Assembly: GCA_036172245.1 (NCBI GenBank)
Contig: JAYWIR010000119.1
Coordinates: 62,001 to 105,781, forward strand
Reading direction: 5' to 3'
Length of the DNA: 43,781 nucleotides
Source of the DNA: Raillietiella orientalis
Taxonomy: Eukaryota
Both the position numbers and the translations under genes were made by a program. The notes below the pieces were generated by a model. The model did no database searches. It saw only the letters and a list, made by a program, of their open reading frames with translations, and was not told where the DNA came from. Positions 1-25,100 of the stretch are shown piece after piece. Each line of letters starts with the position of its first letter. The first letter of the stretch is position 1.

Positions 1-3000
1 CCTTGTTGCTGCAAATATGTTGCTTTTGCACTTTTTCCCTCCTGCTAACCCGGTCCTCTTGATATACGGAAACCAAAATTTTTGAATGAATGCGCAAAAT
101 AGCTTGATTTATCAATCAAGAAGTTCTTGGCACTTGCGTACAGTTAGTGACATCTTTTTCATTTATATTATAAATTCATTGCTTCATTTATTCGTAAGTG
201 CCGTTTCTAGTCATTTCTGCTCAGTATTATAAAAGTATCATTTTGGTTTATTTGTAGTCGTATTGGTTTTGTTTTAGCGCAATCGAGAACATATAAATTA
301 GCCATTCCCACAGACAGAATAGAAAAAAGAAATTCCTCCTGAAACAAGGCAAGTCTCCTTGTAATCGGAAGCTCACGAAAGCCTTCACTGCTCTTTCGAT
401 AAAGAGGCATATCATACCAAATTCCCCTTCTGCTGCTGTTAGTTTAATGTCTAGCGCATTGCCGGCGAAGGGGGGCTCCGAAACCACCAGAGCTAAACCA
501 CGAACCACCGCAGAGGAATTTCGCTTGTGAAATATGCATGAAACAAACAAGCTCCAATTTGCAAAAGAAGACTAGGGAGTTTCTCAATATTTCTTCAGAA
601 TTTCTTAGGTTTCCCCGCGTCTGTGTTGAGCCCACTTATGATCTCTTTGAAAAAAAAAAAAGCACGGAAAGTTGGTTAAAAGTTTTTTTCCCGCTAATTC
701 TATGTTTGGAGAGATTTTTCATCCTAGTTTCCTCAGAAATATTCCATCTTGCTGCAGCTTCCTCCTCTGTCTGATTTGCATTTGAAGAATAACAACAAGA
801 TTCGCCTATTTCGGATTTCACGCATTTCTTTTCGCTTTAGGTGCAATTTGCTTTTTGAGTAATGGACTGGAGCTGTTTAAAGTTTCTTACGTTGCCCCAT
901 CATCGAGACAAAAAGTATTGCAATCATCGAGCCTCCACCTATTCCTCTTCGTTGAAAATCATTTTTCCTGTTTTTGTCCATCTTCGAGTTTAAAGCATCT
1001 GAGAATGCAGTAAGGTTCCACCCATGCCTTCAGACTTCGCCTCCAAAACACACAAAGAGAATGGTGGATGTCGTTCCTGATGGCTTCAATGATGGAGGCA
1101 TTGCATCAGTCTTTTCCATCCACAACGTTGTCACTGAGCATCGAAGTAGAGCTGCAACTCGAGAAACGTAAACGCGCTTCATTTTCTGAAACCTTTCCTG
1201 ATGCAGTGGGATGTGCACGGAGTTGTCCACTCATATGTGACTGCTGATAATTCAATATATAAATATGAGGTTTCCATTTTCTTTATGGAAACCTAATGTT
1301 TACTCTCCTTCCTACAATCCGCGTTGGAAAGCGCCTCTGTGTTCTCGGGCTCGTGCCTCAAAGTGAGTAGTGCAAAACGCAAAAAAACAAAAAAAAAAAT
1401 TGCATTACTCCGCTGGAAATTCATTTCTGTGGCACTCCTGGGTCTTTCAAAGAGAACGCAGTGAGCAGTTTTTCGCGAGAGGTATGTATCGAGTTTGCGT
1501 TGCCCCATGCGAGCCAAAGATAACTAAGGCACTTGCTCTTGCAGCAGCCGCATCTGCATCAAGCCTGGAATGAAGACTGAAGTTTTTGCCCGGACCTTCA
1601 TACTTTTTCAGATACCCCTTTAACATGACCTAGCCATCAGGCATGCTTCACCATCCCTCATCCAAACCCAATTAGACACATCAGCATCATTGTATAGCAG
1701 CTTATCATTTCAGGGATCGAGTGTTTCCACACAAATTTGAGCAGTTTCGCAGTTGACAGCATATCACAAATGATGATATAGAGAGAGAGAAGGAGCGAAA
1801 CAGACAGAGAACGTAGGACTCTTACAGAGAACTTCAAAGATTACATATACATATATATAAATTGCACATCCGTATATTATTCTTGAAGTTTTTCCCATTT
1901 ATAGTTTTTTAAACTCCTTTCGAATTAACTTCTAGTCATAGTTATCAATGTGTGATCATTTTTTCATACACACTTTTTTGTTCTTTAGAGTACGAAAATA
2001 AGAAAGTGCTTCTTAAATCAAATGCATGCTTCAAAGTTTTTATGAGACTGAATTCAAGGCACGTAGCAGCAATCTTGTGAAAGAATATAAAGACCAATGG
2101 AAAACTAGTTCAAGTAAGAAGATTTCAAAACCCAAAGTAATATAATTATCTAAAGAGATTCAGTTTCCTCTTTGTTTTCATGTTTCATAAATCTCAAAGA
2201 AATCGGGAGAATCCTCATGATTGATACCCAAAACATATCTTGAAGCATAGTAGTTCTGCCTTCAATTTTGCAGTTAGAGCCATAAAATAGGCAGTTACAC
2301 TAACATGCAGTTAGGACCATAAAATAGCGGATAGACTGATTATTCGGCATGTATATGTAAGTCCCTCTGCGCACTCGCCAAAAATTGTAATATTGATACT
2401 TTTCTATCCGAGCTTCTATAGAAATTCAAATATGTTCCAGTTTTTCAGTTTGTGTTTTAATGCTTTCCTTCTTTAAATGCAAGAAACTATGAAGTACACT
2501 TCTCAAATCAAATGTGAATTCCCCATTTGTTCAGATTACAACCAAAGCTTAGGTCAAAGCACAATTACATCTGTTGATGGAATAATTGTTAAGCTTTTAT
2601 TTATTTCTGAATTGTTATTATACATCGCTTCTCGCCCTACATGTTTATGGAAGACAAATGTAGGGAGGAGTTTCCACTAAATTAACAGTCCATCTGTGTG
2701 CTTTTTCCTTCCTTTGTTTTTTTTGACTCTCAAATTTTCCGTAATGAAAGAGAGTTTATTTATTACAGACAATGGCTCAGATTATGCTTCTACTTTGTGT
2801 CCCAGGAATACCGTAGATTTTTAAATATATCGTAGAGATATCCTACTATCATCACTCATATGGTGGCGGGCACTTTGAAGGCAAGTGTAGAGCCAGTTTT
2901 CGTCACTTGTTCACCTTTCTCCGTCTGCCTCCAACGCTGTGAGCTCGTGAGTACTCATAAGGACAAAGGACGTACATAATGAGTGTTTTCCCTTATTCCG

Positions 3001-6000
3001 GCAGCACCAGGTTTTAGCACTGGCTTTGTTCCCGGAATGCACTGGCTGGAGACTGCCAACACCGAGTGTTTCCATGTAGGCTTCTCGATTTGGGTCGTCA
3101 GCTCTTCATGCATTGCTGTAATTACGCTCTGGTTATAGATGTGCCTGTTTTGGATATAATCAAAAGATTCTTTCATCTTCCACATCTCATTCGTCATAGA
3201 CGATCTGTGCCTTTCCTGGTGAGGTATCCTCACACAGTCAGGAAGTTGTCGGATTCTACCACTGTTGGATTGCGCTACATGTACCTAGAGAAGATATAAT
3301 GAGCAGGATACACGTCCACTGCTGGAGAGGATATGCTTCGAAGTATGGTACCACCCAACACAGAACATGGTTGTCGTCTGATCTGGATGTATTTCCATAA
3401 AGGATGTACATGTCCATGTTGCCTTCCTTTGGGCTGCGTATAAGATTGGGACAATTTTCCTCCTCACATGCTCGTCAGCTTCGAGAATCATACGTGATTT
3501 TAAGGATTCTTCCGTCGATCATCTACTCTATCTCGAGTCTTTTGGATGCCTATCCTCCCATCCTCCATATGCTTTTGACATCGTCTCGGTTTTCTGCGCT
3601 TTCCATCTATCACTTCCGGCAAAAAATTTCCGAAGTTTCAATCTTTGGTGCTGTCGGCATTTTCTGTTTCATCATCGACCTCAGCATCGTTTGAAAAGAT
3701 CTTATTCAGTTGGTTGGTCCTAGCAGACCTAGCATAGGATAGGTCGGCGAGAGTGAGATTTAATGGCATTTACATATTAATTGACTTAAGCATGCATTTT
3801 TTGACGAGTTGCATGATGGTGATAGGGATGAGTATCCAATCAGCTTTCTTGAATATCCCTAGCCTTTAGTAATACACCAGACCAGGGAAGGGAGCCATCG
3901 TTGCCATGGGAACGACTCGCAATTCATTATGGCCATGGCTTCGGCTAGTACCTGATATATGGTGGGCTCCAGTTGAATAAACCCTAGACAAGCATTAGGT
4001 TTATTCACATTCCACAAATTATTGTTGAATTATAGAAGTAGATCGCAGTCATAAATTTTCCCTTTGAGCTTTATTGAAGTTTTTGACACTTAAGAAAATT
4101 TTCCTATTTTCCAGCAGTATAATACAACTTTTTCAGTGAGCATGAAATAAACCATTGAGTTAAATAGATCGTGTACTTTCTGTCTGTTTCCCATCATGAA
4201 TCAGTAGATTAGATAGAAAAACAATTCTCTTCTATTGTAACTATTATCTGCTCCATAGAGCATTCCTAAATAGAAGATTGTACACGTATTTCTGCATACC
4301 ACAGCCGAATAAATGAAATGATCTCTTCTTCTAACTTATAGCTTTGATGAATTATCGTTTTGCAAAATAGTGAATATCACAGTCGCGAATGTCCTATTAT
4401 GTCAATATATTTCAGTTACAGCATTACCGGATTTAGAACTACACAACTAGCACTACAAAAAATATCATCCAAGGAGCGAACATGCTGTATTTCACTAGAG
4501 AAACAAGCAAAAAAATATGCTAAGAACCCTCAGAAACTCCAACTAGGAAATGCATTTTAAATTAAAATCAAGAAAAATGGTCATGCAGAGTGACTGGGAC
4601 TTTGAAAGTAAGGAATTGTTGACAAAGCAGGATTGAATTCTATTCACTTATCCTTCTAATCAGCAGCATGACTCAAAGTTTCTGACATTTAATATTTTTT
4701 TAAACTATAAAAATGTGTTCAAGCGTTGCTTTAAAGTCCTATTCAAATAAGCAGTTGGATTCTATGAGTTCTGTTTCTTTCTCAATCCTGAAATAGCATG
4801 ACTGCCCTGATATGTTGTAGGCAGAAAGTGGTTCGCGAAGTGTGGGTATCGTCTCGTACCCAAAAGGAGGAATTGTGTTGTTATCTGTTTCAAATGTTGG
4901 AAGATACCCAGCATAACAGCCCTGGTTCGAGTTCAAGGTATGAATTTAAAACTGAATTTTCGATCAGTGAGAAATTTCTGATTGCAACTTTTTCCTTTCT
5001 TTGACATCTTTTCAATATTGGTAGTCTTCAAATCAGTTGTATTACCTGGAGATGAAGATGTGTATTTATTGCTCATTCTTCCATTCCAGACGGAGAGTTA
5101 ATCCATAATTTAGATTTTCTTGACCCATATGTAATATTTTACTACAATCCCCCTTAGAGTTACTCTTCTTAATACTATTCTTCTGAGATCAGGAATCTCA
5201 GTCACAAGAACACATCACTACCTCTTAAAAAAGTTCACCCCTTTTGCTACTCCCACTATTTCTCACCATTATTATTGGTTTACTGTAAAGTATAATTCAA
5301 ATCCTAGAATACTTCATGCTCATATTCTCTATTGCAGACTCCATTTTTGGCACATTTTTCATCACAAAAGACTTCCGTGGCCTGATTTATCCGAAGAAAA
5401 CATTTGTATGCACTTTGTATTAGGATTTCAAGCACGATTTGACTTAGCTGGATAGCAAGATGCTGTACAAGGAAAAATGCAGCATGTAAGTTTACTTAAA
5501 TGCTTTTGCTTTTCTGACTGTAGACATGTTAAAGAATGCATCAAGAAATGCTAGTGTATGATACTTTCATTTTTATGCAATTTTAGCAATTCGTTTCGGC
5601 GACTAGGTTGGATTATTTTTGGAAATGAATTTAGTTAATTCAATTTGCATTGCATCTTACATTTTTTCATATGCAATCAGTAGTTTCAGTTGGATTTAGG
5701 AGTGCAGATGATCTTTATGGTGCTGTTTTGATCCATTTTTGTGGAAGGGCATCTACCATCTTACCGGTGGCTTTTTTTCTTTTGCAGTCAGTGCATTGAA
5801 TTGCAGTTCTTGTAATGCTTACCTCTCTTGCATGGATGTGATGTGGCATTTGTGTTAAGAGACATTCTGTTCAAGTGTAAATGAATTGGTCATTGGTGCT
5901 GTACACAACTCTCAGGGATGCTTTATGTTTTAAAGTTTTTTTTTCCTATCAATTCATATCAGCTTATTTCAAAAATGGTTTGGCATGCAACTGTTCAAGT

Positions 6001-6554
6001 ATGCAGTCATAAGAGCTGGGATTTCAGTATATGTTTTCTTTTAGAATTTCGAATTAACATTCTGCATACACAAGAATATACATGTACTGGAACTGTTTTT
6101 AACTTGTGTGATTTACCATATGATATTTCGTAATTGGTTACTATTAATGTATTTTGTATTGATAAACAGTGGAGGTGCCTTCAAGGTATTTGCTGCATAC
6201 TCCCTACAGAGGTGCTTTATATGTGGTGTAAAGGATGGTTGCCTGTTCATTTGATGCTGATAGAAGGAAATTACATGCACAGATGCAGCACTGACAGTGA
6301 TAGAATCTTATTGATCTTCATTTGTTTAAGGATCAGTGAGGATTTTCCGACTATTGTAGCCCTTTAGTGAACTTCTTAGGGTCCACAAGTTGCAGTGTTG
6401 AAGGTTTTACTATGATTTCCTTGAAGTAGGAATTAAATTTTATGGATGATGCTCATGAATATATGTTCAGACAAGGCTAGACAGTTCAGATGTTGAAATT
6501 GCAAAGCAACCCTTCAAGATGGGAAGCAACTCGGCAGTACCCTTCAGCCCACTT

Positions 6555-7780
6555 TCATGTGGCTGCCCAGGCCGTTGGAATTTGTCATGGATGTTGATTG
6601 GCAGGCTGATCTTCAGTGACAGTACAGCTCCAATGAGCAAGGGCCTCTGTTTGGTCTTCTGGTCCAGGCGCTTTATATAATTGGAACCCAAATACAATAC
6701 TGCTCTTATTGTTGCTGCAGTTTCTCTTCTCGCTGAAACTGTCTGGAATTTTCTTGTCCAGTTGAGATCTTAGTCTCTGATTCGGATTGGTATGGTCTTG
6801 ATTGCTAGGGGTGCTGTTCCAGTGATGTCCAGACTTTTGAAACAACCTTTTGTTATCTTCAAAGTTGTTTTTGGCCCTATAATATCTGACAACAACTTCA
6901 GATAACGGAGGTTGAATCGAGTTCTAGGAACGTATTCTGGAAGCGTTGTGATGGTTATTCTTCGGCTACCTAGTCTCTGCTTAATCTCTTGACGTTGAGG
7001 AGTTGTTATATTCATTCTACCTAGGAGATTCTTTGTCCACCTAGAACATCTGGCCTTCCTATTCTATAATCGATATCTGGCACTTCAGCTTCGGATGTTA
7101 GGGTCATCACACCGTTCGCAGTGATTCCCAGGCGTGGAACCTCTTTGAAAAGGTTATGATTTTCCTGGTTCGCAGCATTTGCTTAATACCATCCCAACCC
7201 ATGCACCGTTGTGGTCGGTAAGTTTGGAATGTTCAACCCCGATCTTTTGCCCATTTCGTCAGCATAATCGCCGACTGATGTTAACTAAGATGGGCTGAGG
7301 TAGTTGAACTTCCCATCTGTTGTAGCGTTACGTATTTATTTTTCCTCCAAGGTCAGTGCCCGTTTTGCTTGCTTGGCCTTTATGTCCAGCAGACGTAGCC
7401 GGACCACTGCTGAGGCATAGTATCATATGTTGGCTTTCTCAATCTTCTGATCTAGGAAAAGATTCTCGAGTGGATTTTTTTCATATATTTGGTCAGCGAT
7501 GTTATATAGCTGATCGAATGATGTGCTGAATGTCTCGCGCACACTGATTTCGGACACCTTCATATCCGAGCCGAAAGTAACCTCATCAATAGACGATTTA
7601 CGTTGTGGCATAAGATCCATGTTCCGCTCCATATTCGTCTCCGTAATGGCGAATGGCGTGGCTATATGAGTTTTGTTTGCCAGCCTCTTCACACATCCTG
7701 GATTTGAAGCTTGTGGAGCTTGCTGCTTGGCAGCAGGGGGAACTGCTCATTTCACTTCACTTTCGGACTACTTTCGCCTT
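6555..7780 (-). pseudogene. Endogenous viral element: partiti-like dsRNA virus capsid protein, decayed
   Basis: Minus-strand translation through stops and frameshifts gives EISVRETFSTSFDQL...YYASAVVRLRLLDIKAKQAKRALTLEEK*IRNAT...EMGKRSGLNIPNLPTT...HNLFKEVPRLGI...QRQEIKQRLGSRRITITTLPEYVPRTRFNLRYLKLLSDIIG...FGFQLYKAPGP...WSC...QIPTAW. From memory these blocks are collinear with capsids of arthropod partiti-like viruses; needs BLASTx confirmation. Ends approximate. Confidence 0.75.
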
Positions 7781-10700
7781 CCTTGGAAGGAAATCTTTAG
7801 GAGAATAGTTGGTTTTATTTATTTCTTAGCAGACCGCTACCTGTTAGGCCAACAACTAACTCGGTAGTTGTATGAAGCCTAATGATGCTTCTTGCAGCCA
7901 GTGGCAGTAGCCTTCTTGCAGTAGGCAGAGCGATTGCTTTTCTTTGCAGTGGTTAGATTCACAGACAGTGCTTTTTATTGCTAACAATCTTTTGGGGGTG
8001 GCCTGCAAACGGAAGTGTATTAAGATTGTGAGTCATGATGAGACATGTAGTTATTGCATAATCATATGAAATTCAAGGCCAATATCATGATGGGGATGTT
8101 GTTTCCCCGTTTCAGCCGACAAAATTGCATACTTTTTGCTTTTTATCTGCAGTTGAAACTTAAATAAAAAGAAGGATATCCAAGTACGATGTTGATGTTC
8201 AACATTGATGATGCATTCAGTGCATGCTTTGTGTTTCACAGAGCACCATGTATGATTGAAGCTATGAAGCTGCAGCATTTCTTTGTATGCTTCATTAGAC
8301 AATCGTGGGGTGTTTTGTATGTTCCATTGACTTCATGTACTCTAGGTCAAATTTTCATAAATAAATGACAGGAAGCAGGAAAATGTTATATTTTGTTTGA
8401 ATGTTTGAATAAATTGTGTCTCTTTGCCCGTCAGTTCGATTTCTTCGCGCTGCTTGGCAGGTTTGTGTACCCATATTGTGTCATTTTTGCCATTTGGTTG
8501 AAAATCTCAGCTTTAATGACAAGTACCATGTCTGAAACTGTTTTATCACGTTCAGAGATAGCAGAATATAAGTGCTTTTCGGAATTCGATATTTGAACTT
8601 TCCACTGACGGTTTTGGTTTTCTGAAGCAGCATATTTCATCTCAGCAATGTTCATTAAACTCGAGCATATCATGAACAGTTTGTTACAGTATTAGGGATG
8701 AAGTAGGCTCTATGTAGAAAGAATTATGAAGAAGGTGGATTATTTTTGATGGTTTTTCACCCGGGTGAGCCAGGGCTTCTATGATTAAAATTTTTTCACA
8801 ATAAAAAAAAAAATTCCACAATAAAGTCTTTTTCGTTCATGATGTTTGTCGTTTAGTTCACTACATTAGTTTTTGTCGTTCTTCGCCACTTGTCCTTACC
8901 AACCCTCAGGCCGGTAACGTCCTCCATACTGGCGCAGGGGCGGGAAAAACAAAAATAAAACAAAAAAAAAGAAAACGCCTGGGAAAGGCAGTGTTCTTTG
9001 TGCAGGGGAGGGAAGGGAGGGGATCACGGTACGCCGTGAAGAGGCCTCTGCATCCTGTTTCGGATGCGAACAAGTGCCGGCAAATGTTTTCCAAGTCGAC
9101 GCCAACGGCAGGCCTTCTCCAAAGAGATGGCTGCCCAGTGGATGGCATTCCGACTCGTACTTCCTCTCCTTGACGCGGTCCACTTGTCCAGGACTCCGCA
9201 TATGCAACAGAGCACTGCTACACACCCGAAATCTGGCAAGGCGTCCCGCGTCAGGAGGCGTCTAAATAAGTTTTTCGGGTCGCCCACCGGAATGTTCAGG
9301 ATCGACGAGATTCGGTCCCACATCTCCCGGAGGACAACACACTCTAGAATCAATTGGGGGAAGGTCTCCCTTTCCCCGCACTCTGTACAATTGGCATCCA
9401 CATTCCCCGATGTCCAGTGAGACAGGCGTGCTCTGCTTAAGAGTCCCCAATGGAGCAGAAGGAACGCCGTCTCCTGCCATTGCAGAGGAAGGGTGCCGTT
9501 ATCCCAACCCGCTGTGGGCCACTTCACCTCCTCCGGAAGTATGTCGAGCAGCGCGCCCCAGCGTACTAAGTCCATTCGGCGGGGCAGCGGGTGTACTAGC
9601 GTCCGCTAGTTCCCGAGACGTCCACGCCTTCAATTGTTTTTTCCTGCCTCCGATAAGGCAGGACACTTCCTACGATGCCTCCTGATGGCTGTCCCTAACT
9701 TCTCTGAGGGAGGGCAGCACGGAGTCAAGGGGGGTGAAGGAAGCCCACAGAAGCTTCCCTGGGTTGCACACGATCTCCTGCAGTGGCTGGCCAGCGTGCC
9801 TGCCTCTACGTAGGCAAAGTCCTCATCACTGGAGCCGTTGATTTTGGCCCAAGCGGAAACGGACTCCTGGAGCCAGGTAGTCCAGTCCGCAGGGATGCAG
9901 GAGATCCACGGATTGTCTCTCAACAGGGCAACCAATTCCCGCAGCTGAAATCAACAGTGGTACAGGCTGCGTTAGTTGGCTCCTAGGATTGAGGTTAATC
10001 CTTGGCAGCCGGTTGCCCTGTGTGCGAGGAGTCTTGTAGGTGCAAACCAGGGTGCAGTCCAATACTTTGCCACCAGGGCAAGTTTTCTAAATTGGAGCTG
10101 GCGCTCCATGCGCTCCATCGTCAGGACACCAAGTCCACGGTCTCTGCGTGGCTCGCACAAGTCTTTAAGACGGACACGGGGCCTCCGGTTGCCCCAGAGG
10201 GCTTTCCGTATGAGGTCCCTTGTCCGTGTCCTAATCTGTTGAGGGGTGGGACACACAAAAAGTAGGGGGCGAAGGAGGGGGGCCGCAAAAGCGTTCCACA
10301 CCGCGGCCCGTTCCTGCAAGTAAAACTTGCCGTCTCGGAACGGGCCGATCGCCAACTCCACCTTTTGGAGACGGTGGGACCAGGCTTCTGCAGCGCAGAA
10401 GTCCCCCAACGGAACGCCCAGGTACTTGAAGTACCCGCCCGTAGGGATCCCCAAGCGGATCCAGTCCGACCGTCCTGCCCGCGACGAGTCAGAAGAAATG
10501 ATCGACGACTTCGCCCTGTTTACCTCGAAGCCCGTCCCACAATGCAGCAACTCAAAGAAATCTTCGAGCGCCGATGCCGGGTTGGACCCGTGAAGCAGAA
10601 GCAGAAGGTCGTCGGCATTGGCCGACACGGCAGGCGTGCCGGGACATGAGCTCGGCAGGGTTGCCAAAGTCTCCCTGTATGCTCTCAGCACCAACTCAAA

Positions 10701-11346
10701 GTAGATGCTGAAGAGCAGGGGGCTGAGGCTGTCACCCTGCCGTATGCCTCGACGAACCGGCACGCCGTACATGTGCCGGCCGCTGAAGTTAATATTAATG
10801 ATCGCGAAGCGCCAGCAGGAGCGCAGGTAGGCCAGGAAGACAGACGGTTAATCCCATGCGTTCCAGGAGCTCCAGGAGGAGCTCCTGGCCGACGCAATCG
10901 AAAGCTTTACGCAAATCGACTGCGACCGCAAGGGCTCCGGGCGCCGCATCTTCTCCCCGGCTTCCTTCTCCCCGGCTTCCTTTCCCCCGGTCAGTGAAGA
11001 GTCCAGGACTCTCCCGAGCTAGCTGCCCCTCGCGTTGTTGCAACTGCCAAAAGGTGCGGGCGAGGAACAGGTTGGCCTCCATGGTTCGTCCGGGAACAGC
11101 GTAAGTCTGTTCCGGACTGACCACGGATCCCGCTACCCGTCCCAGCCGCTGAGCCCAGAGTTTGGCGAGCAACTTCGCGTCCGCATTCACTACAGTGATG
11201 GGACGCCAGTTGCCAACGTTCCGCAAGTCTTTTCCCATGGGGAGGAGACGTACTCTAGCTGACCAGAACGAGTTCGGGACATCCCCACGTTCACGGATCA
11301 GCATACATAATTTGAGCACCAGGGGGACCAGCTCTGCCTCGAAGTG

Positions 11347-12403
11347 AATGAGGATGAGGAATCTGTCGAGTCGCGGGCTTGCGCTGTACTAGGACTTGAA
11401 GCGCAAGCCCAAGGGAGTATGGTTCCATTTTCATTCATCATCCAATCTGTAAGACGACTAGCATCACACTTGGAGATATCACGTACAACCCATATGTCTG
11501 ACGACATCTTTTCGTAGTTCGGCTCCCAATTACTAGAGACAATGATGTGAGGGTCCAAAATGTTTGATGGATCCTTGATATTTGCTGTCGAAGATAATTC
11601 CGTTTTTCATGGTTTCGATGAAACCGTATTGCACGAGTTCTTGATTGTCTCGTGTAAGATCGACTACGATTACCCACTCGCCGTTGTAGATGTGGGCGGC
11701 GTCCGTTTTCTTGCAGGAGTGCTTGTAGATCGCTCCCTTTTTTAGGTAAAGGAATTTGGCCATCGTGATTTTGCCTATTCCTCCAATTGGGTCGAAGAAC
11801 CAGTGTATTTTGCGGTTGTCTGGGTTGTGGCGGATAAGTTTGAGTATGTCCATCTGCCAGCTTCTGAGTTGGAGTTTAGTTAGTGGATTAGGGTGTGCTC
11901 TGCTGTGTGTTAGCCTTAAGCATTCTTTAACAAAGTTTATGTTTTTGGAATAAAACTTTGTGTGATTTTTTAAGATGAAGTGTTCGTCTGCACCTTCTTC
12001 GATAAGCTGTAGGATCTAGTAGAGATATGACTAATTATTTTGTTTGAACGATTTATGGACTTACCAGGTCTTGGTAGTTTGTTGGTTCGTTTGCTTCGTG
12101 TAATTTGCCGTATGTCCAGGCGTTTTTGTCCTCCTTAGTGCAGTACCTTAAGTTGCTCTGAGCTGATCCTCTTGCTTTCTCCAAGTGTGTCTTGTGGAAA
12201 GGTTTTCTTTTTAGTCCTGGCATGGTGCGTGGCTCTTTTAATTGGAAGTATCCCTAAAGATGTGGCGTCCCTGTTTTGGCAGTTTTTTGGCCAATGCAGG
12301 CGAAGCCGCAGTTGGCACGGCATCAGTTCTTAATGTCTTTCAAGTCTTCTTCGGTGAAGTTGCAGAGTGTAAAGCACCAATTGAAAAACAGTGCGTACGG
12401 CAT
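11347..12403 (-). pseudogene. rep: Rolling-circle replication initiator Rep (HUH endonuclease + SF3 helicase), spliced, disrupted
   Basis: ATG at 12403; motif I WCFTLCN, motif II TPHL*G, motif III YCTKE; Walker A DPIGGIGKIT, Walker B IVVDLTR, KNGIIFDSKY, motif C PHIIVSSN, SSDIW. Premature stops at 12323-12325 and 12254-12256, a frameshift near 11555, and no stop before the LINE junction. Confidence 0.95.
12016..12064 (-). other. 49-nt GT-AG intron in viral rep
   Basis: GTAAGT...CTACTAG; removal joins a 339-nt exon 1 in frame to the helicase exon (NYQDL|ILQLIEEG). Confidence 0.8.
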
Positions 12404-12452
12404 CTTGAAATTCACTGTAGGTAAGACTTGGCTTTGGTTCTCTGTGTGTTGG

Positions 12453-12460
12453 TATTTATA
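12453..12460 (-). promoter_or_regulatory. TATA box of rep
   Basis: TATAAATA on the minus strand about 50 nt upstream of the rep ATG, next to the origin hairpin. Confidence 0.6.
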
Positions 12461-12479
12461 GTGCGTAACTGCGCAGAAG

Positions 12480-12514
12480 ATGCAATCTGGTAAATAGTAT
12501 TACCCAGATTGCAT
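12480..12514 (+). other. CRESS virus origin of replication stem-loop
   Basis: ATGCAATCTGG-TAAA-TAGTATTAC-CCAGATTGCAT: perfect 11-bp stem; the loop contains the canonical nonanucleotide TAGTATTAC (12495-12503). Confidence 0.95.
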
Positions 12515-12760
12515 TTCGCTGACAACTCAAAACCTTGGGAAATTCCGATATGTTGTAAGTGATATTTTTAGTGGCTGGTTTTTGTGCGCAATCATGGAAG
12601 ACTTTGGAATGAGGAACATGCTGTTGCTGTCCACGTGGGAAGTGCGTGGCGTAACCCGACCTCGTGGAAGACTGATGAAGTCGGGTGGGCGTGCCCACCA
12701 GCCAGACTAAAAAAGGGCGGGGGATTGACTTAGGTCGTCAGTACGCTGTCAAGCAGCGGA

Positions 12761-12904
12761 ATGGCGGCACCTCGCGCTGTTCGTTCTCGGAAGCGAAACC
12801 GTGTAGTATCTTGGTCTGTAGGAAAGCGACATAGGTTGTCGCGTCGCAATGTTGGTTATAGTACGTTTAAACGTCGGCGCCGCTGGAATAATCGTCGCCG
12901 TAAG
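12761..12904 (+). pseudogene. 5' fragment of CRESS virus capsid gene (Arg-rich N-terminal arm)
   Basis: MAAPRAVRSRKRNRVVSWSVGKRHRLSRRNVGYSTFKRRRRWNNRRRK, divergent from rep across the origin, cut by the LINE junction. Confidence 0.75.
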
Positions 12905-13295
12905 TTGGTAAAATTCAGCTGGCGGGCCGTGTTCCCCTGGTGCTTTGTTTTTTTTTAAATATTTGATGGCGGAGACAATCTCCGCCATGGTGAAATCTTT
13001 GTTTATGGTATAAGACTCTGCCTCCCTTAACGCGGGAGCACCTTTGGCAGCAAACGCTGCGCAAAGGAGCGCTCTGGTGTTCTCGCGTCTAGGGAGGAGT
13101 AGAAATCCCGCAAAATGCGGCAAACCTGCGCTGGAGTAGAGCGCTCCTGGCCTTGCTCGTCCAGAAAGCAGGAAGACCCGGATTGCCAGGCCTGCTTCTC
13201 AGGTCCAGCCTTGAACTCCGCCAGGCGACGGACGTCGGGCTTGTTGGAGAAACGACGGGCCTGAAGATAGCCCCTGTCGTTTCTCACGCCTTCGC

Positions 13296-13783
13296 CCGAT
13301 TCAATCGACCTCATCGTCACCAATGTGTACGCTCCTAGCGTTAAACAGGGATACCAGCAGCGCAACGCGTTACTGGAAACCTTGAAGCGCGAATGGCTGG
13401 TGGACACGGACGTGCGAAAGGCGCATCTGATAGCAGGGGATTTCAACGTCCGTCTGCTCTCAGATGAGCACGGAGCACAGGGAAACGCGATCAACGAGTT
13501 GTGCGCCGCCCTGCGCGCGCGCAGATTGTTGACAGAAATACAGGGGATGGTCAGAAGCGTGGACCACGTCTTTCTCGACGAAGACCTGTGCACACGGGTC
13601 GGAAAACAAGAAACACTTGAATCGACGCTGTCGGACCATTCCCGGTTATTATTCGAGATGCGCCCGCGCGAGCACGGACCGCCATCCAAGGCGTGGCATA
13701 TGCCAGGGGACTGGACGCGCTTGTGAGGAGCGAAAGAACACCTTGGCGAATTCCTGCGAGGCGTCACCGTCCAGAGTCTCTCT
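13296..13783 (+). mobile_element. LINE APE endonuclease fragment, inverted relative to copy X
   Basis: DSIDLIVTNVYAP, AGDFNVRL, SVDHVFL, LSDHSRL. Confidence 0.9.
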
Positions 13784-15573: not shown

Positions 15574-17567
15574 ATGGCAGAAATGCCTGAGGACACCGCG
15601 ATGGAAGTCGGCGGGGGAGAGGATTGTTCCTCTCCCCAACCCATTGAGGTCAGGGCAACTGTCCCCACGGAGGAGAGGGCAACCTTTCCCTTGAAAAAGG
15701 GGGCAACCGCCCCACCGGAAACGAGTGCTACCGCCACCTTGAAAAAGGGGGCGACCTACCTCGTGGAAAAGGCCGCAACCGCGCCCTTGAAAAAGAGGAC
15801 AACCGCCGCCTTGGAAAAGGGCGCAACCGCGTCTTTGGATCCGTCTGCTCCATCCACAAGGACCTGGAGCTCCGTGGCTGCAGCGCCATCTCCCGCAGCC
15901 TTAGCAGAACAGCGCGCCTACCTTGAACAAGGATACAAGCCATCCTTGATTTACAAGGTAGGAAACCTGTTTGTGGGAAACACCGCTCGTAACTTTGAAA
16001 GAAAGTTACAGCGGTTGGATGTAAAAAAGAAAGACCTGGATGGTCTCGCCGTGATGAGTGGAAGGCAGCGGGTGGAGCTGACTTGCAAAAATGCAAGTCT
16101 GGCTCAACGCCTGCTGAACACTCCCATCACTCTGGAAGGCCGAAAGGTCTTCCCTGTAACGGAGGACCGCTCCTTTGTTGCACACCTAACCGGTGTAACT
16201 CTGCGCATGACAAAAGCAGGCGTGCAGGAGGAGTTGCAAAAAATGGTACGGTGCACGCGCCCAGGACCAAGCCCAAAGTATTCCAAACATACGGAAGACT
16301 GTTCAGTGGCATGGCTGCAGCGCGTGTGACCGTCCACGAAAACGGTGGGCTGCCCCACAAACTCGACGTCGGCAACGAGGTCGTCGACGTCTGGTACGTG
16401 GGCAAGCCCAAGTACTGTGGCCACTGTGATGCAACAGGGCACCTGAAAAAGCGTTGCCCTCACATCCAGTGTTTCCACTGCGGGGAGAAGGGCCACCTCC
16501 GAAAAGTGTGCCCAAAGCGGGAACCTCCAACTCCCTCTGCCTTGAAAAAACGTAAGGGGAAATGCTTCGAGAAAACAAGCAAGCCCACAGAAATGAAGGA
16601 AAGGCCAAGCAAAAAGCCAGAGTCCGAATGTTCCCAGCAAACGGTGGTCAAGAAAACTCCCGACGACGCTGGTGACAACGAGCACTGGAGAACAGCGAAG
16701 CCGAAAACTAAAAAAATCCGTAAAACCGAAGAACCGATAGCGGAACCCGCGACAACTTCTTTAAATAGAAGGCAACGCCGCGCTTTGCTCCGCGAATGTT
16801 CGGTCGCTTTGTAGCGAGTGGAGATCCCCGAGACCTCCACCGGGGGAGATATCCCCCGCCTCGTTGACGACGAAGCCGCGATCGCGAAAGGCGAACCTTC
16901 TGTGCAAAAAGAGGGGGAGCAGAGCGACCCGCTCGCCGCAATCGAGGACGCCGCCTTATAACAGGCGGCGGAAGAGCTCGCGGCCGTACTCGCGGAGCGT
17001 GAGAACGGGGCGCGAAAGGCCTAGCGAAGGCCGGCCGCAAGCAAGGCACCTCCGACAGGTGACCACGAAGCGGATGCCGGAAGTGCGTCCTCCTCCGCGG
17101 AGGCGCCTTTGAAGAAGACTGGACGGAAGTCCAAAAATCCAAAGAGGCGCATTCCGACAAAGGAGGGGGACGCACCGGCAACCGAGGGGGAAGCCGACAG
17201 CGTGGGAACGGAGGGAGCGATTTTCCCACCCTCCGCTACCGAGCAGCTGGCGACCCCCATGGAGGAGGGGGATAAGGTGAGTGATTGCCGCCCCCTCCCA
17301 ACGGTGGAACCTGTTCAGGAGATAGCCATGGAGGAAAGGGAGCAGACAGCTGACAACCGCTCCCCCCTGCCGTCCAGCGCAGTCGACGAATCGGCCCCCA
17401 TGGAAGAGGGGGAGCAGGTGCGTCAAACCCACCCCCTTCAACCGTCGCGGTCCGCCGAGGAATCAGCCCCCATGGAGGAGGAAGAACCGGTGCCCGGTGA
17501 TCCCATTCCTCCATCCGTCCCGCCCGATCAGGTGGCGGTAGCCCCATTGCCACTTTCCCAGGAATAA
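15574..17567 (+). pseudogene. LINE ORF1 (nucleic-acid-binding, two CCHC zinc knuckles), disrupted
   Basis: MAEMPEDTAMEV...; CGHCDATGHLKKRC and CFHCGEKGHLRKVC; low-complexity C-terminus with PMEEGE repeats; frameshift near 16250 and stops at 16812 and beyond. Confidence 0.85.
15652..15843 (+). repeat. 24-bp (8-aa) degenerate tandem repeat in ORF1, 8 units
   Basis: RATVPTEE RATFPLKK GATAPPET SATATLKK GATYLVEK AATAPLKK RTTAALEK GATASLDP; only 3 units at 31396-31467. Confidence 0.8.
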
Positions 17568-18358: not shown

Positions 18359-21300
18359 TTGAAACCCGTGTGCGCCGGGTCGTTTATTCTCACGAATAAA
18401 CCAATATAATTTGTGACTGGACCAGTAGTCCAGCTACGCCCTGGAAAGATATAGCTTGCCGGGCTACCAGTGCGCAGACCGGCGCGGTCGACCTCGGCAG
18501 CAGAGGGGAGGGGGAACGAAACAAAAAGAAAACAAAAAAAGTAAACAAAAATCGGGGAGGAAGCGGGATGGAATCACAGTCTGCTGGGAGGTTCCGTCAC
18601 CCTCTGGACAATGCCGGCAAGCTGTTGCTGCGTGTGTGGTTCCAGGTAGGGCCATCGCGTCGCCATCCTGAGGAAACGGGCGGCATACACGTTGGCATCC
18701 CTGTCGCTGGATCCTCCCTTCGCTTTGCTCCATGCCACGACGATCCCGCGTAGGCAGCACAGGGCTGCAAGCAAGGCCGCTGGAGGCAGGGCGTCACGGA
18801 CGAAGACGGGGCGCAAAGCGTCTCTGGGGTTGCCTCCGCGGATCCCGAGGGCTGCGGCAAAGCGTTCCCACAAGGGACGGAGGGCAACACAATCCACTAA
18901 CAGGTGGGGGAGGTATTCCCTCTCCCCGCACCTGACACAACTAGGGTTGACACTCCCCGCGTCCAGTGGTATCGGCGGGCGTTGCAAGGAAGCCCCCAAT
19001 GCAACACCATCAGTGCCGACTGTTGCCACTTCATGGGGAGGGTGCGCGAGTCCATGAGCACCGGGGGCCACTCGAGATGTTCCTCTAAAACATCCAGTAG
19101 CTCTCCCCAGCGCAACAGTCCATTTGGGGTGGTCCTCGGGGTCGCAGCGTTGCTGAAACTGACACGTTCTCCGATCCCCGATCTTCTTCGCGCTGCCGGC
19201 GATCTTGACAGTAACCTCCCATTGTGCCGCGACGTCGCTGCCCAGATGTTCCCGTAGGGTAGGCAGTACCGCAGCAAGGGAGGTTCTTGGAGACAACGCT
19301 CTCCTTCGGGGATCCTCGAAGATTTCTCGGAGCTTACGTTGGGCGTGAGGCCCGAACAGAGCTATTCGCTCGTGTTGCGGGCTCTGTTCCTGAATCATCG
19401 CCCACGTGCGCACGGTTTCCTGCAGCCAGACAGGAGCTTTCGCGGGGCGTACGAGGATCCGCGCCGGGTTGTTCTTCACGACCTTGGCCGACCTCCGAAG
19501 TTGAAATCCGAAGTGGCAGATGGGGCTTCGGAGTGCAAAGTAGGACGAGAGTCCTGCATTGCCGGTGGCCCGTTCGAGGAGGAGACGTGCCGGGAGGCAC
19601 CAAGGGGTGCACCAATTTTCTGCCATAAAGGCGACAACTGGAAACTGGAGCTGTAGCTCCAGCCGCTCCAACGTCAGGAGGCCCAGACCACCATCCCGAC
19701 TTCGAGCGCACAAGTCCGCAAGACGGACTCGGGGCCTCCCTCTGCCCCAAAGGGCGATCCTCAGGAAGTCCTTCGTCCTCTTCTTTGACTCCGCTGAGGG
19801 GGGAGAAACAAAAAGCAAGGGGCGAAGGAGGGGGGCCTCAAACGCGTTCCACGCCGCGGCCCGCTCATGCAGGAAGAACCTACCGTCCTGGAACGGGCCG
19901 ATCGCCTCCTCAGCCTTCTGAAGGTAGGCGGACCATTCTTCCGCAGGGGAGTAGTCCCCCAACGGCACACCAAGGTACTTGAAGTACCTCACCGTGGGGA
20001 TCCCCAAACGGACCCAGTCCTGCTGCCCTGCCCACGCCGCACCAACTGGCATCACGGACGACTTCGCTCTGTTCACCGTCAGTCCTGTTCCCCGACTCAG
20101 CAGGTCGAAGAAGTCCTCGACCGCCGCAGCCGGGGTGGACCTAGGCAGCTGCAGCAGAAGGTCGTCCGCGTACGCCGAAACCGCAGGCGTACCGGGACAA
20201 TCGCACGGCAGGTGCGCCAGAGTCTCCCTGTACGCTCTCAGCACCAATTCGAAATAGGCGCTGAAGAGCACGGGGCTGAGGCTGTCTCCCTGCCGTATGC
20301 TGTGTCGCACCGGTACGCCGTACACGGTGGATCCACTAACAAAAACATTAATAAGCGCGTCGCGCCAGCTGGAGCGCAGGTAGGCTAGCAAAGATACCGG
20401 GAAGCCCAAGCGTTCCAGAAGCTCCAAAAGGAGATTCTGATCGACGCAATCGAATGCTTTATGCAAATCGACTGCGACCGCGAGGGCACATCTCCCCCCC
20501 CGACCATCCCGTCTTCCACGGACGGACGCACCGGAATTCCTGTTGCTTATTATGCTCCTTCCTTGTTGGAGCTCTAACTATGTGGAAGCGTGTAACAGGT
20601 TCGCCTCCATACTTCGCCCGCGAACAGCATATGTCTGTTCCGAGCTGATGAAGATGTTGGCGACCCGTCCCAGGCGCTCTGCCCACAGCGTGGCTAGCAA
20701 CTTGGCGTCCGCATTCACTATTGTGATGGGACGCCAGTTGTTCATGCTCCTAAGGTCTCCTCCCTTAGGGAGGAGCCGCACCTTTGGTGAACGAAACGAG
20801 GTGGGAACGTCACCTGTTTCGCGGATCACCAAGGTGAGCTGATGTACCAAGGGAGTAAGCTCTGGCGCGAAAGTTTGATAAAACTCCGCAGGCAGGCCGT
20901 CCTCCCCTGGAGCCTTCCGCCTCTTGAGCTTTCCGATGGCGGAGAGGATCTCGTCCATCGTGAAAGGCTCGTCGAGGCTTCTTTTCTCCTCCTCCACGAT
21001 CGCTGGAGCACTTTCCGGAAGCAGAAGTCGTGAGACGTCTTGCTCCGGAGGCGCCCTGGCGTACAGGGAGGAGTAAAATTTCCTCACTATCCCGCGTTTC
21101 TGAGCGGGAACCGAGTGCTTTCGGCCCTGGTCGTCCAGCAAGCTGGCCGATCCGGATTGCCAGGCTTGCCTCTCGGCTCCCGCTTGATACTCTGCTAATC
21201 TGCGCATGTCGGGGGTTCTCGCGTAACGTCGGGCCTGAAGATAGCACCTCTCGTTACGCGGCCCCTCCCCAAATCCCGCAGGTAGGCGATGCAGGGGGAA

Positions 21301-22137
21301 CTGGTCGCAGAACTCCTGGACCGACCGCTTGAAGCGGTCCCAGTCCTGAACTGTCTGCATCCTGAAGCTCCGAATAAACGCCCGGAGGTGCTCCGCCGCG
21401 TCGGGAAACTTCAGCCAGTCTCCTAGCAGACGCCACGCTGACGAGGGGGGGCCCTTGTAGCGCGGACGCACTTCGAACATGATCCGACCATGGTCCGAGA
21501 GCTCGTATGGTACCTTGCCGCGCCTGCCCACCCGAGAGCATAGGTGCTGATCAAGGTACACGTGATCGATGCTGCTTTCCATGGCCGTGTCCCCGGCCAA
21601 CAAGTTGCGCGTGTTCATTTCTGCGCACAACTCGTTGACGCGGTCGTTCAGTGTATCCGGCGCACCTGAAAGCAGGCGCAGGTTGAAATCACCTGCGATC
21701 AGGTGCGCTTTGCGAACTCCTGCATCGGTCAGCCAATCGCGTCTCAGGGCAAGGTAGAATTCCCTTCTTGCCTTCGCCCTCAACGCGTTATTTCCGCTAG
21801 GAGCGTATAGGTTGGTGACGACCAGGTCGATAGAGTCGGACCAGCTGAGAGTCAGCTGACCGACGCGACCTGCGTCATCGAACCGAACGTCCGTTATTGC
21901 GGTCTCGATGGCTGGCCGTAGCAGGAAGGGGACACCTCTTGATTTCGCGGTGCCGCAACGCCACAACAGCCGCCCACCCGAGATCCGTTCGATCTCCCGG
22001 GCTTGATCTGCGGAGATCACGTGGATCTCCTGCAGCAGCACCAGGTCGGAGGATGCCAGGGCGGCGGCCACGTCACGCCTCTTGCCGTCGTCGCATGGCC
22101 CGTTCACGTTCCAACAGGCGATCAGAAGACGACGCCG
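18359..22137 (-). mobile_element. LINE copy A2 (almost complete ORF2 plus 3' UTR)
   Basis: CWNVNG, LLQEIH, AGDFN, SIDH, LSDH, KAPGEDGLPAEFY, WRPITIVNADAKLL, YADD, CVRCGEREYLPHLLVDC; 3' AATAAA and hairpin at 18360-18390. Confidence 0.96.
18574..22137 (-). pseudogene. ORF2 APE endonuclease-reverse transcriptase, best-preserved copy
   Basis: The 520-aa and 630-aa ORFs are in the same frame, separated by one TAG (20578-20580). There are two compensating frameshifts near 19165 and 18960, and the first few codons are lost at the 22137 junction. Confidence 0.9.
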
Positions 22138-25100
22138 CATCCTCCGTAATGGTTTCCTTGCCCCCGGTGCGGAGTTACGCCGCCGTTACCTTTTAAAGAC
22201 CAGGACCCTGCGAATCGGAGTTCCAGGCATATGTGTCATCAGGATACATGCCTGCACTCCGTTATAAGGTCAGTGGGCCACTTAACGGGAGAATCATTCG
22301 TGAGCTCAATGATGAGCTCGTCCGGATAGGCGTTCGCGAGAAGGAACTCCTTGCCATAATGCCTGCTGGCAGGATGGAATATACCAAGATTCGGTGCAAG
22401 AACGCAGCACTTGTGCAGCGCCTTCTCCGTACGCCGTTGACCATCAATGGCAAGGAAGTCCTACCTACCGCGATAGACGACTCTTTTGTCGTTCAATTGT
22501 GCGACATCGAACCGGAAATCTCCGACCGCGATGTCGTAAGTGTGCTGGCGAAGTTCGCCACCGTGCACGCTCTGTGGAGGAGGCCAAATCTTTTAAAGGA
22601 TTTCCCCTCTGTCCACATTGGACAAGCCTCCGCGAGGATCACCGTCGCGAACAGGCGTGTTGTGCCTGAGCAGCTGCAGGTGAACGGCACGGTCGTTCAC
22701 CTGTGGTTCATAGGCCAGACTCGCGCGTGCGAGCAGTGCGGCAAGGAGGGGCACCGAATTAAAGAGTGCCCCTATCCAGGATGCCGCTATTGCAAAGATT
22801 CCGGCCACGAAATCAAAAAGTGCCCGGTACTTGCAAGAAAAAGAGCCGCAGCGGAAATTCGTCGGGTTCAAGAGACCACTTCACGAAAAGCCGCAGCGGC
22901 AAATAAACAACGTCGTCCGCAAAAACTCGAAAAAAACCACGAGCGATCCGCGGATAAAAAGAAAGCATCCCCGCCCGCAACGCCCCGAAAGGGGAAAGTC
23001 ACGGCGGGAAAGCCAATTAAAAAGGGGGGCGAGGGTTTGACGCGTGCCGTGCCTTCCCTCTCTGCCGAACTCGCGGGCACCTTTCCGAACCTGGAACCAG
23101 GAAATCTCCGTAACACCCTGGAGGGAAAGGTAGGAAAACAGGAAGATCGCAACAGTGCGAAGACTTCTTGCCCCGTTCCGTTGTCCCTTCCGAGTTCCGG
23201 ACAGCCCCACTGCAGCGCAGGCCCCACTGCAAAGGCTACGAAAGCCGTAAAAAGCAGCGTCGCAACGAGCACAAGCACGCTGCATGCAGTCGCCCCATCG
23301 CCGACTCTAGGCAGGAGCAGAGCGATCTGCCGACTGTCAAGAAAGTGACTCCGTTGCCGCCTTTTAAAGGCGTAGCGAAAGCAGCGCCCCCAGAGAACGC
23401 AGCGAAAATCCCGGTGGTTTCTGCAACTACTGTCGCGGGAGCCTCCGAAAATCGCGAAGACGAATGAAGGGTTGTGAAGAGGAGGAAAGAAAAATCTCCC
23501 AAAAAGCTTCGCAACATCGATCCCTGAGCTTTTTTATAGGAAAAGGCAGTCGCCCGAGTACGAAAACACGCGGGGCTGGTGCCACTTCCCAAAAAAAAGC
23601 CAGCGCCTACAATGCGTGCAAGTCCGCTGATGTGACCGCTGAGAAGACCATTCCGTTGCAAGCGCACTTCGATCTTGCGAGCATCAGACTCCGCAAAGGA
23701 GTTCAATAGCGCCGCTGAACGACGGGTTACTCGCACGGGCGCTAGCGCCCGCAGGGCTAAAGCCCTAAGGCGTGACACACTCGCCGCAGAACGGCGAGTG
23801 CTCACCCCGGAACCCACAGGTTCTGCACCCGGGGAGAAGCACTCCATCTCGTGGAGCAGAGTTGAGGCCGGTGGGACCGTGCTCTTCAGCCCGTCGTGCT
23901 GCTTACTGCCCGCTCGCCGGGTGGAGCGAGCATCACGGCCTCGCTTTCCCAGCCCTGATGAGGGCAATCGCGTCTTCTCGTCGTGTTGCCGTTAAGTCTT
24001 GGAACGTCAACGTGCTCCAAAACGAGGAGCAGAGGTGACTAGTGGCTAACTCTCGGCGCGCCTTCGACTTGACGCTTCTGCAGGAGATTCACAGGATCTG
24101 CGAAGAGCAGGCTGCCGAAATCGAACAGCGCGCGGGCGGAACGCTACTTTAGAAATGCGGCGTTGCACGTACGTGCGGCGTCGCTTTCCTCGTGCGATGA
24201 ACTTTGGCGGGAGCGGTGCGCAGCGTTCGTTTCGACACGGAAGGCCGAGTGAGACAGCTTGTACTCAAGTGGTCCGACTCGATCGACCTTGTCGTAACCA
24301 ACGTGTAAGCGCCGAGCGGTGCTGGACGATGGGCCGAAAGGATTGAGTTTTTCGGTACCGTTCAAAGGTAGTGGCTGACTCGATCTCACGCTACTGTGGC
24401 CCAAATCATTGCATGGGACTTTAACGTCCACCTGCTTTTCGAGAATAGATCCCACAAAAGGGAAAAGTTGCTAGCAAAAGAGATGTGCGCGTCCGTTCAC
24501 GCGTGCAACTTGTTCGCTAGCGACCCTGTTATGGCAGCAACGCCGGACCACGTATACCTTGATGAACACATGCTCTCTCGAGTGGGTCGGAGAGGTGCCG
24601 TCCCGTCCCTGCTTTCAGACCACAGCAAGCTCGAGTTCGTATTGCTCCCGCCTGGCAAGGGGCCTCCAAACTGTTTTTGGAGGATGCCGGCAGACTAGCT
24701 TAGCCACCCGGAGGCGGCTGAGCACCTTCGCCAGTAGCTCCTCGGCTTTGCCATGAGTGAGCTAGAGGACTAGGACAATCTTAAAAGATCGGTCTGAAAG
24801 TTCTGCTGCCGGTTTCCCTTGCACCAGCTTCCGCGCGGCTTAGGAGAGGGCGTAGCCAACAGCAGATATTTTCTGCAGGCCTGCTTCTTCTCCAGGCGCG
24901 CGGACGTTGGTCGATTATGCGAGTACAAGGCTGGGGCCGAGCGCCAGTTCTGGTAGTCAGGGGCTACAGTTCTGCTCGACGACCAGGACCGTGAATGCTC
25001 GGCTCCAGCCGACGTGCCACGGATAGTCAGGCGCTATTACTCTTCTCTGTATGCAAAGGCATCGACGGAACGCAGCCTCTCCCGGCTGCTTCTGCCGATT

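Follow-up and report, generated by a model that had tools for sequence, protein, structure and literature searches.

The stretch analysed here, 43,781 nt of the Raillietiella orientalis genome (contig JAYWIR010000119.1 of assembly GCA_036172245.1; hereafter the window), contains a piece of a CRESS DNA virus (circular, single-stranded and coding for a replication-associated protein, Rep) lodged inside the second open reading frame (ORF2) of a long interspersed nuclear element (LINE). The virus-like block has host sequence on both sides within one contig, carries disrupted viral genes, as expected of an endogenous viral element (EVE), and is poorer in GC than its flanks (55-58%). Its features are the following.

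11347-12904, no strand assigned: inserted CRESS-DNA virus fragment (1558 nt, 45.4% GC)
12065-12403, minus strand: Rep exon 1, encoding the HUH endonuclease and its motifs I, II and III (Pfam Viral_Rep, E = 6.3e-15)
12016-12064, minus strand: Rep intron of 49 nt, GTAAGT...CTAG (frame shift across it, in-frame stops inside it, relatives without a gap)
11557-12015, minus strand: Rep exon 2, linker and superfamily 3 (SF3) helicase with Walker A and B motifs (library matches and alignments)
11556, minus strand: one-base frame change in Rep (conserved residues lie in one frame as far as 11557 and in the next from 11555)
11471-11555, minus strand: conserved C-terminal block of Rep, helicase motif C region, in a third frame (alignment to relatives)
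12453-12460, minus strand: candidate Rep promoter TATAAATA, 50 nt upstream of the Rep ATG (read from the sequence)
12480-12514, plus strand: replication-origin stem-loop, whose 11-bp stem closes a loop of 13 nt with TAGTATTAC at its end (significance of the fold)
12761-12904, plus strand: start of a putative capsid gene, 48 codons, truncated between two codons by the right junction
11347-11443, no strand assigned: left-terminal imperfect palindrome (outer arms 11352-11362 and 11433-11443)

The Rep gene combines the two domains expected of a Rep of the phylum Cressdnaviricota, an HUH endonuclease and an SF3 helicase. The match of exon 1 to Viral_Rep scores 55.6 bits (cutoff 26), and 8 of the 16 solved structures that it matches are Rep N-terminal endonuclease domains (E = 8e-13 to 6e-5), with which its motifs align, the remaining eight being fibrinogen matches at noise level (E = 0.4-1). 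Searched by itself against 1.84 billion representatives, exon 2 retrieves 3986 proteins at E ≤ 0.001 and, of these, 1075 at E ≤ 1e-10; the single match at E ≤ 1e-30 is a tandem-helicase protein whose score sums two domains, and the best single-domain E-value is 2.8e-24. The helicase piece aligns over 150 or more residues to library proteins, the listed relatives being assigned mostly to PF02407 and in part to PF00910, and the atlas neighbours of the Rep are viruses in 88-96% of cases, most often Cressdnaviricota. Pfam gave no match at E ≤ 10 for the helicase piece or for the C-terminal piece of Rep, and among solved structures the helicase piece met no Rep chain, including the full-length chain matched by the endonuclease piece, and only two matches at noise level (PEPCK, E = 0.5-0.8). 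One library protein, P0001, is a 354-residue 'Methylococcales MAG hypothetical protein' (MAG, metagenome-assembled genome) that lacks an endonuclease domain and is made up of two CRESS-type helicase halves in tandem; this sequence probably comes from a circular CRESS contig that was read round twice, or was assigned to the wrong bin. As for the segment between the exons, full-length relatives align without a gap across 12016-12064, which is thus a retained spliceosomal intron; splicing to another AG nine bases further along, at 12007, would lengthen the intron to 58 nt.

The same gene is decayed. Two stops interrupt the frame of exon 1, a TGA at 12325-12323 and, within motif II, a TAG at 12256-12254; the Walker A motif departs from consensus at the residue following the lysine, and the frame changes at 11556. 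Because Rep is broken by two stops and a frameshift, the insert is a fossil rather than a contaminant. Given that ~3.9% of substitutions yield a stop, the two found over 294 codons correspond to ~6% divergence since inactivation (Poisson 95% range, 0.7-21%). The two triplets could instead be sense codons of a donor virus with a variant genetic code, in which case Rep would not be interrupted by them, and the location of the TAG at a conserved motif-II position could be taken in favor of this view. We reject it and grant it next to no credence, as single-transition stops arise from few codons, so that one falling at a conserved position is expected from decay, two different stops would need a rare triple-reassignment code, and the frame change would be left unexplained. 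Moreover, read with the standard code, the host LINE ORFs run without a stop for as many as 667 codons, and this is therefore the code used by the host nucleus.

The replication origin sits between the Rep ATG (12403) and the divergent ATG (12761), as it does in CRESS genomes. Its nonanucleotide, TAGTATTAC, is located at 12495-12503 on the capsid-sense strand, 390 nt from the right end of the insert and 1134 nt from the left. The fold has a z-score of -4.0 (0 of 200 shuffles equally stable), and the window has a single copy of TAGTATTAC, where 0.04 would be expected and 4 of 100 shuffles have at least one. The identification of the insert as a CRESS-virus fragment, made in the original prediction, is thus upheld by the Viral_Rep match, the helicase relatives and the TAGTATTAC stem-loop. 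The element TATAAATA may be part of the Rep promoter. The divergent second gene is a putative capsid gene, from its position, its orientation and the Arg-rich composition of its product (16 Arg and 4 Lys, 20 of 48 codons); no family match was found for this stub in Pfam up to E ≤ 10. Accordingly, the intron, the origin and both divergent gene starts are retained, as had been claimed, and the accompanying statement that Rep, origin and capsid are preserved together applies to the first two and, for the capsid, to an Arg-rich stub of 48 codons lacking detectable homology. The possibility that the insert is a complete circular genome was also considered: joining it end to end gives an open capsid frame of 105 codons, too short for a capsid protein, and the idea was rejected; that the frame stays open is in itself uninformative, since by chance alone one frame in three would be open.

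The host element interrupted by this fragment consists of three parts.

9006-11346, minus strand: 3' part of the LINE, reverse transcriptase (RT) and zf-RVT region (RVT_1 and zf-RVT matches), degraded into several ORF pieces
12905-13281, minus strand: LINE ORF2 upstream of the RT domain, continuing the left flank (alignment to copy A2)
13296-13726, plus strand: 5' piece of this LINE family in inverted orientation, endonuclease region (alignment to copy A2)

On the plus strand, LINE sequence stops at 11346 (...GAAGTG) and restarts at 12905 with TTGGTAAAATTC, the ambiguity of the junction being 1 nt, as one G can be assigned to either side. Read on the minus strand, ORF2 runs through ...KAPGEHGPPAEFYQ as far as 12905 and goes on as HFEAELVPLVLKLC... 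from 11346, and with the insert deleted the frame is ...PAEFYQ | HFEAELVPLV..., which copy A2, the best-preserved LINE in the window (minus strand, 18577-22185), shows uninterrupted as EFYQTFAPELTPLV. When the flanks were compared with the window by BLASTN, the left one (10089-11303) matched A2 19642-20831 at 73% and the right one (12905-13281) matched A2 20875-21255 at 67%; as the flanks abut in A2, the empty site corresponds to A2 20874|20875. A third copy on the opposite strand (34471-34239) is likewise collinear over the insertion site, within 4 nt, and base-level alignment shows that no LINE base was lost and no target-site duplication was made. These paralogous copies, by supplying the empty site, allow both junctions to be read to the base, and the claimed clean insertion between two ORF2 codons, with no loss and 1 nt of ambiguity, stands. 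Over the same two segments A2 and the third copy share 71% and 74% identity, so the difference between the flanks falls within the range of the family and gives no sign of two LINE subfamilies, the circumstance named in the original prediction as fatal to it. Other LINE copies carrying the insert, which it had proposed to look for, were not found in the window, where the insert has no second copy and both LINE copies spanning the site are empty.

The interrupted LINE copy has a history of its own. Its 5' part (13296-13714) aligns with A2 21839-21415 in reverse orientation, and ~159 nt are absent at the inversion point relative to A2. Inversion of the 5' end with loss at the switch is the pattern left by twin priming during retrotransposition. 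Given this inverted 5' part, the interrupted copy is itself a retrotransposition product. Its 3' part (9006-11346) aligns to seven other LINE copies in the window at 67-74% identity.

Read support comes from one public run, X1, which shares words with the stretch (0.06 share); no RNA run was listed. The X1 contigs amount to 1.48 billion letters at low depth, which suggests a large host genome. Of 27 X1 records, 1 matches at ≥99% identity, 14 at 90-95% and 12 below 90%, the uncovered parts being uninformative. A 207-nt X1 contig is identical to 12745-12951 and extends over the right junction (160 nt of viral and 47 nt of LINE sequence), and this answers for one side the call, made in the original prediction, for junctions confirmed in reads; the left junction was not seen among the matches listed (8 of 29 X1 pieces). 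An assembly chimera, in which reads from a contaminating or infecting virus were misjoined into a LINE, would account for a GC content unlike that of the flanks and for the fact that one of the two junctions was seen in a read-derived contig. Such an artifact is nonetheless highly improbable: two stops and a frame change in Rep would not be tolerable in a replicating virus, a random misjoin would not restore the LINE frame exactly with respect to two paralogs, and the identical 207-nt contig runs over the right junction. Diverged X1 matches were observed as well, at 12745-12805 (85% over 61 nt, the capsid start) and with some depth around 11556-11637 (helicase), and they may come from additional, older fossils of this lineage at other loci in the genome.

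As to the virus lineage, the closest relatives among 271 gathered proteins reach 40% identity over the endonuclease, 41% over the helicase and 50% over the C-terminal block (P0083). Metagenomic CRESS Reps display the same architecture of HUH endonuclease and SF3 helicase, with 31-41% identity to the fossil per domain. Named relatives include Otevirus soksuewis (Anicreviridae, Mulpavirales), Skomarfal virus 46 and Hermit crab associated circular virus (unclassified Circoviridae); names are rare, with six virus names among the 120 relatives listed in the profile search, four of them 'Cressdnaviricota sp.', and a look-up of 20 relatives gave one cluster labelled as a bacterial MAG protein and another that includes Skomarfal virus 46. 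A tree was built from the fossil, with X at each break, and 54 proteins chosen from the 271, of which 40 had the highest summed scores and 14 were named or early hits (217 were omitted), and it contained neither bona fide Circovirus or Cyclovirus references nor curated family references. In this tree, which follows up the suggested Rep phylogeny, the fossil forms an end branch of 1.66 substitutions per site with no supported sister. With regard to Circoviridae, the endonuclease piece best matches solved circovirus Reps and the helicase piece matches no solved Rep; membership in this family is not supported by these Rep comparisons. In the scheme of the International Committee on Taxonomy of Viruses (ICTV), the Cyclovirus-type layout is ambisense, with the nonanucleotide on the capsid-sense strand and, in some members, an intron in Rep. 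The fossil matches this layout in all three respects and differs in that its Rep does not support placement in Circoviridae.

The donor would best be called an unclassified member of the phylum Cressdnaviricota with an orphan Rep. In searches for a circular relative, viral contigs queried with the helicase piece gave no locus (from six tblastn relatives), viral contigs queried with P0083 gave none, and the exact 21-nt origin loop had no match in viral contigs. Similarly, metagenome contigs searched with the helicase piece yielded 103 pattern matches, none of which was confirmed, and a word-indexed search for longer relatives of this piece returned 98 candidates, none significant.

The anatomy of the insert points to its source. 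Retention of the intron, genes on both strands, an internal origin and the absence of poly(A) indicate that viral DNA, and not mRNA, was captured, in agreement with what had been proposed from the sequence. A LINE-mediated retrocopy of viral mRNA is excluded by the retained intron, by genes on both strands with a shared control region, and by the lack of both poly(A) and a target-site duplication; template switching by the LINE enzyme would need exit from and re-entry into the LINE RNA at adjacent bases. The position of the origin, 390 and 1134 nt from the ends, together with the absence of duplication or deletion, argues for end joining instead of Rep nicking, and the earlier suggestion to this effect is retained as an inference. 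We therefore consider it likely that the locus is an EVE formed when a sub-genomic piece of the double-stranded replicative form of an unclassified CRESS virus was ligated by non-homologous end joining into a break in a dead LINE copy.

In such a scenario, a double-stranded piece of viral DNA, perhaps about three quarters of the genome, would have been present in a germ-line nucleus, and the linear fragment would have been ligated at a clean double-strand break in an existing LINE copy. One viral break would lie in capsid codon 48 and the other at or just past the 3' end of Rep. The fragment would then have decayed as neutral DNA, acquiring two stops, one frame change and the Walker A departure. 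The donor virus would have had divergent Rep and capsid genes, its nonanucleotide lying on the capsid-sense strand. Its Rep would have been spliced, the intron being very short, and its genes would therefore have been expressed in a eukaryotic nucleus.

Two other routes to the same structure have to be weighed against end joining. The first is integration by the viral Rep, or in the course of rolling-circle replication, with later trimming of the ends, a route assumed for the CRESS fossils of Entamoeba and Giardia (PMC7493932). We regard it as very unlikely here, given that LINE flanks complete to the nucleotide and in frame are not what trimming would leave behind, that the nick site is internal and intact, and that neither junction lies at the nick site of the nonanucleotide or shows nonamer-like sequence. 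The second is that the virus entered an active LINE, the locus being one retrotransposed copy of a composite LINE-virus RNA that exists in many copies. The 5' inversion of this LINE copy, typical of retrotransposition by twin priming, the location of Rep on the LINE sense strand, and the diverged X1 matches at 11354-11428 (~92%), 12745-12805 and 11556-11637 are all compatible with a composite element, as are the carnivore circoviral fossils that are described as embedded in non-LTR retrotransposons and apparently amplified by them (10.1101/207399). Yet the insert is absent from the other LINE copies of the window, including both that span the site, and the diverged X1 contigs stop short of the LINE flanks, one diverging 7 nt inside the left end and the other missing the right junction. 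Additionally, a GT..AG intron on the same strand was kept, though splicing may be inefficient. On balance, a composite LINE is an unlikely explanation.

Several points weigh against capture of a viral fragment by end joining as described above. The left junction is not bridged among the X1 matches listed, and X1 may be the sample of the assembly itself, in which case the support for the right junction is not independent. The empty site is known from paralogous LINE copies, not from an allele or an ortholog, and end joining is deduced from the form of the junctions alone. The frame change adjoins a TTTT run and could be an assembly error. Furthermore, the Rep frame runs on through the left junction, with no stop codon inside the insert, and the palindromic ~95 nt at that end could be filler or a repeat of the host instead of virus.

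This left-end palindrome contains a perfect 11-bp inner hairpin (11375-11385 and 11400-11410) and folds with z-scores of -3.6 and -3.9. Two X1 contigs match it over 11354-11428 only, at ~92% identity and with one common difference, and have dissimilar sequence on both sides (among the matches listed); Pfam gave no match at E ≤ 10 for the plus-strand ORF at this end. The palindrome may be either a viral 3' hairpin that further, diverged fossils have in common, or filler DNA or a small repeat of the host picked up at the junction. If the left ~95 nt are non-viral, the viral breakpoint moves, and end joining would still fit. Consequently, the original description of the whole insert as viral holds for most of it, with reservations for this end and for a Rep that lacks its stop codon. 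A broader and doubtful extension is that several diverged copies of the same CRESS lineage are present in a large genome, with the ~35-kb accumulation of nested LINE fragments in mixed orientation acting as a source locus of the PIWI-interacting RNA type from which the host would raise antisense small RNAs against a circulating single-stranded DNA virus, and/or that the 95-nt palindrome is a virus-derived hairpin which spread on its own.

The insert lies near one edge of this LINE-rich region. Beyond ~9000 and up to its end, the window consists of accumulated fragments of apurinic/apyrimidinic endonuclease (APE)-type LINEs in both orientations (55-61% GC), set off by a sharp boundary from positions 1-8900, which have 38.8% GC, a CpG observed/expected ratio of 0.63 and no recognisable coding sequence (no Pfam match for 26 ORF pieces from 1-8700). 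The CpG ratio is ~1.0 both for the insert and for the LINE fragments that begin at 13297, 0.82-0.90 in both flanks of the interrupted copy and 0.82 at 8900-11346, and these ratios give a weak indication of an invertebrate-like pattern of CpG methylation in the host. Searches of the window for tRNA genes and Rfam families found neither. The assignment to APE-type LINEs follows from the endonuclease and RT found on one strand of A2 (Exo_endo_phos, E = 5e-12; RVT_1, E = 8e-14; in stop-free stretches of 535 and 667 codons), and from the RVT_1 and zf-RVT matches of the interrupted copy. For the LINE RT one relative was found, at 64% identity, and the atlas neighbours of the LINE protein are eukaryotic and of mixed taxa (Basidiomycota, Chordata). 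The LINE copies end in short T-rich tandem units on the sense strand (~12-13 nt, e.g., TTCTTTTTGTTT) and not in poly(A), at 8943-8975, 18523-18551 and 36803-36853. Other tandem repeats occur at 15677-15831 (unit of 24 or 48 nt, 6.4 and 3.0 copies) and, within the interrupted LINE copy, at 10950-10987 (15-nt unit, 2.6 copies).

The locus provides a physical link between a eukaryotic host and a CRESS lineage with no close relative among 1.84 billion representative proteins. It also keeps non-coding features that most such fossils lack, namely an origin, a short spliceosomal intron and both gene starts, and these indicate expression of the donor virus in the nucleus of a eukaryote. Likewise, it would be a clean documented case in which CRESS DNA entered a genome by plain end joining and not only via Rep. 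Retrotransposon-embedded circoviral fossils and integrations of whole CRESS genomes are already known, some of them comparable or more complete, so the high interest claimed at the outset has to be lowered; the kinds of viral fossil known are unchanged by this locus.

Three published sets provide the comparison. The circoviral elements CVe-Carnivora-4 of carnivores are flanked by non-LTR retrotransposons and present in 10-20 copies (Dennis et al., 10.1101/207399). They resemble the present locus as Rep-bearing fossils of single-stranded DNA viruses with non-LTR retrotransposon flanks in a eukaryote. However, they derive from vertebrate Circovirus and were apparently amplified with the retroelement, whereas here the Rep lineage is unplaced, one locus is documented, the junctions are resolved to the base, and the intron, the origin and the capsid start are kept. 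In cyprinid fish, tandem full-length circovirus genomes have been described (10.1101/207399), which share with this insert a source in viral genomic DNA and not in mRNA; as tandem multimers they suggest products of rolling-circle replication or recombination, in contrast to the single sub-genomic piece found here. Finally, whole CRESS genomes are integrated in Entamoeba and Giardia, presumably through Rep (Kinsella et al., 2020, PMC7493932). These fossils, like the one in R. orientalis, comprise Rep and capsid sequence and tie an unclassified virus group to a host. They are complete, with exogenous relatives at 73-84% nucleotide identity, whereas the fragment in the LINE would represent about three quarters of a genome, reaches at most 41% amino-acid identity per Rep domain, and has junctions unlike a join made by Rep.

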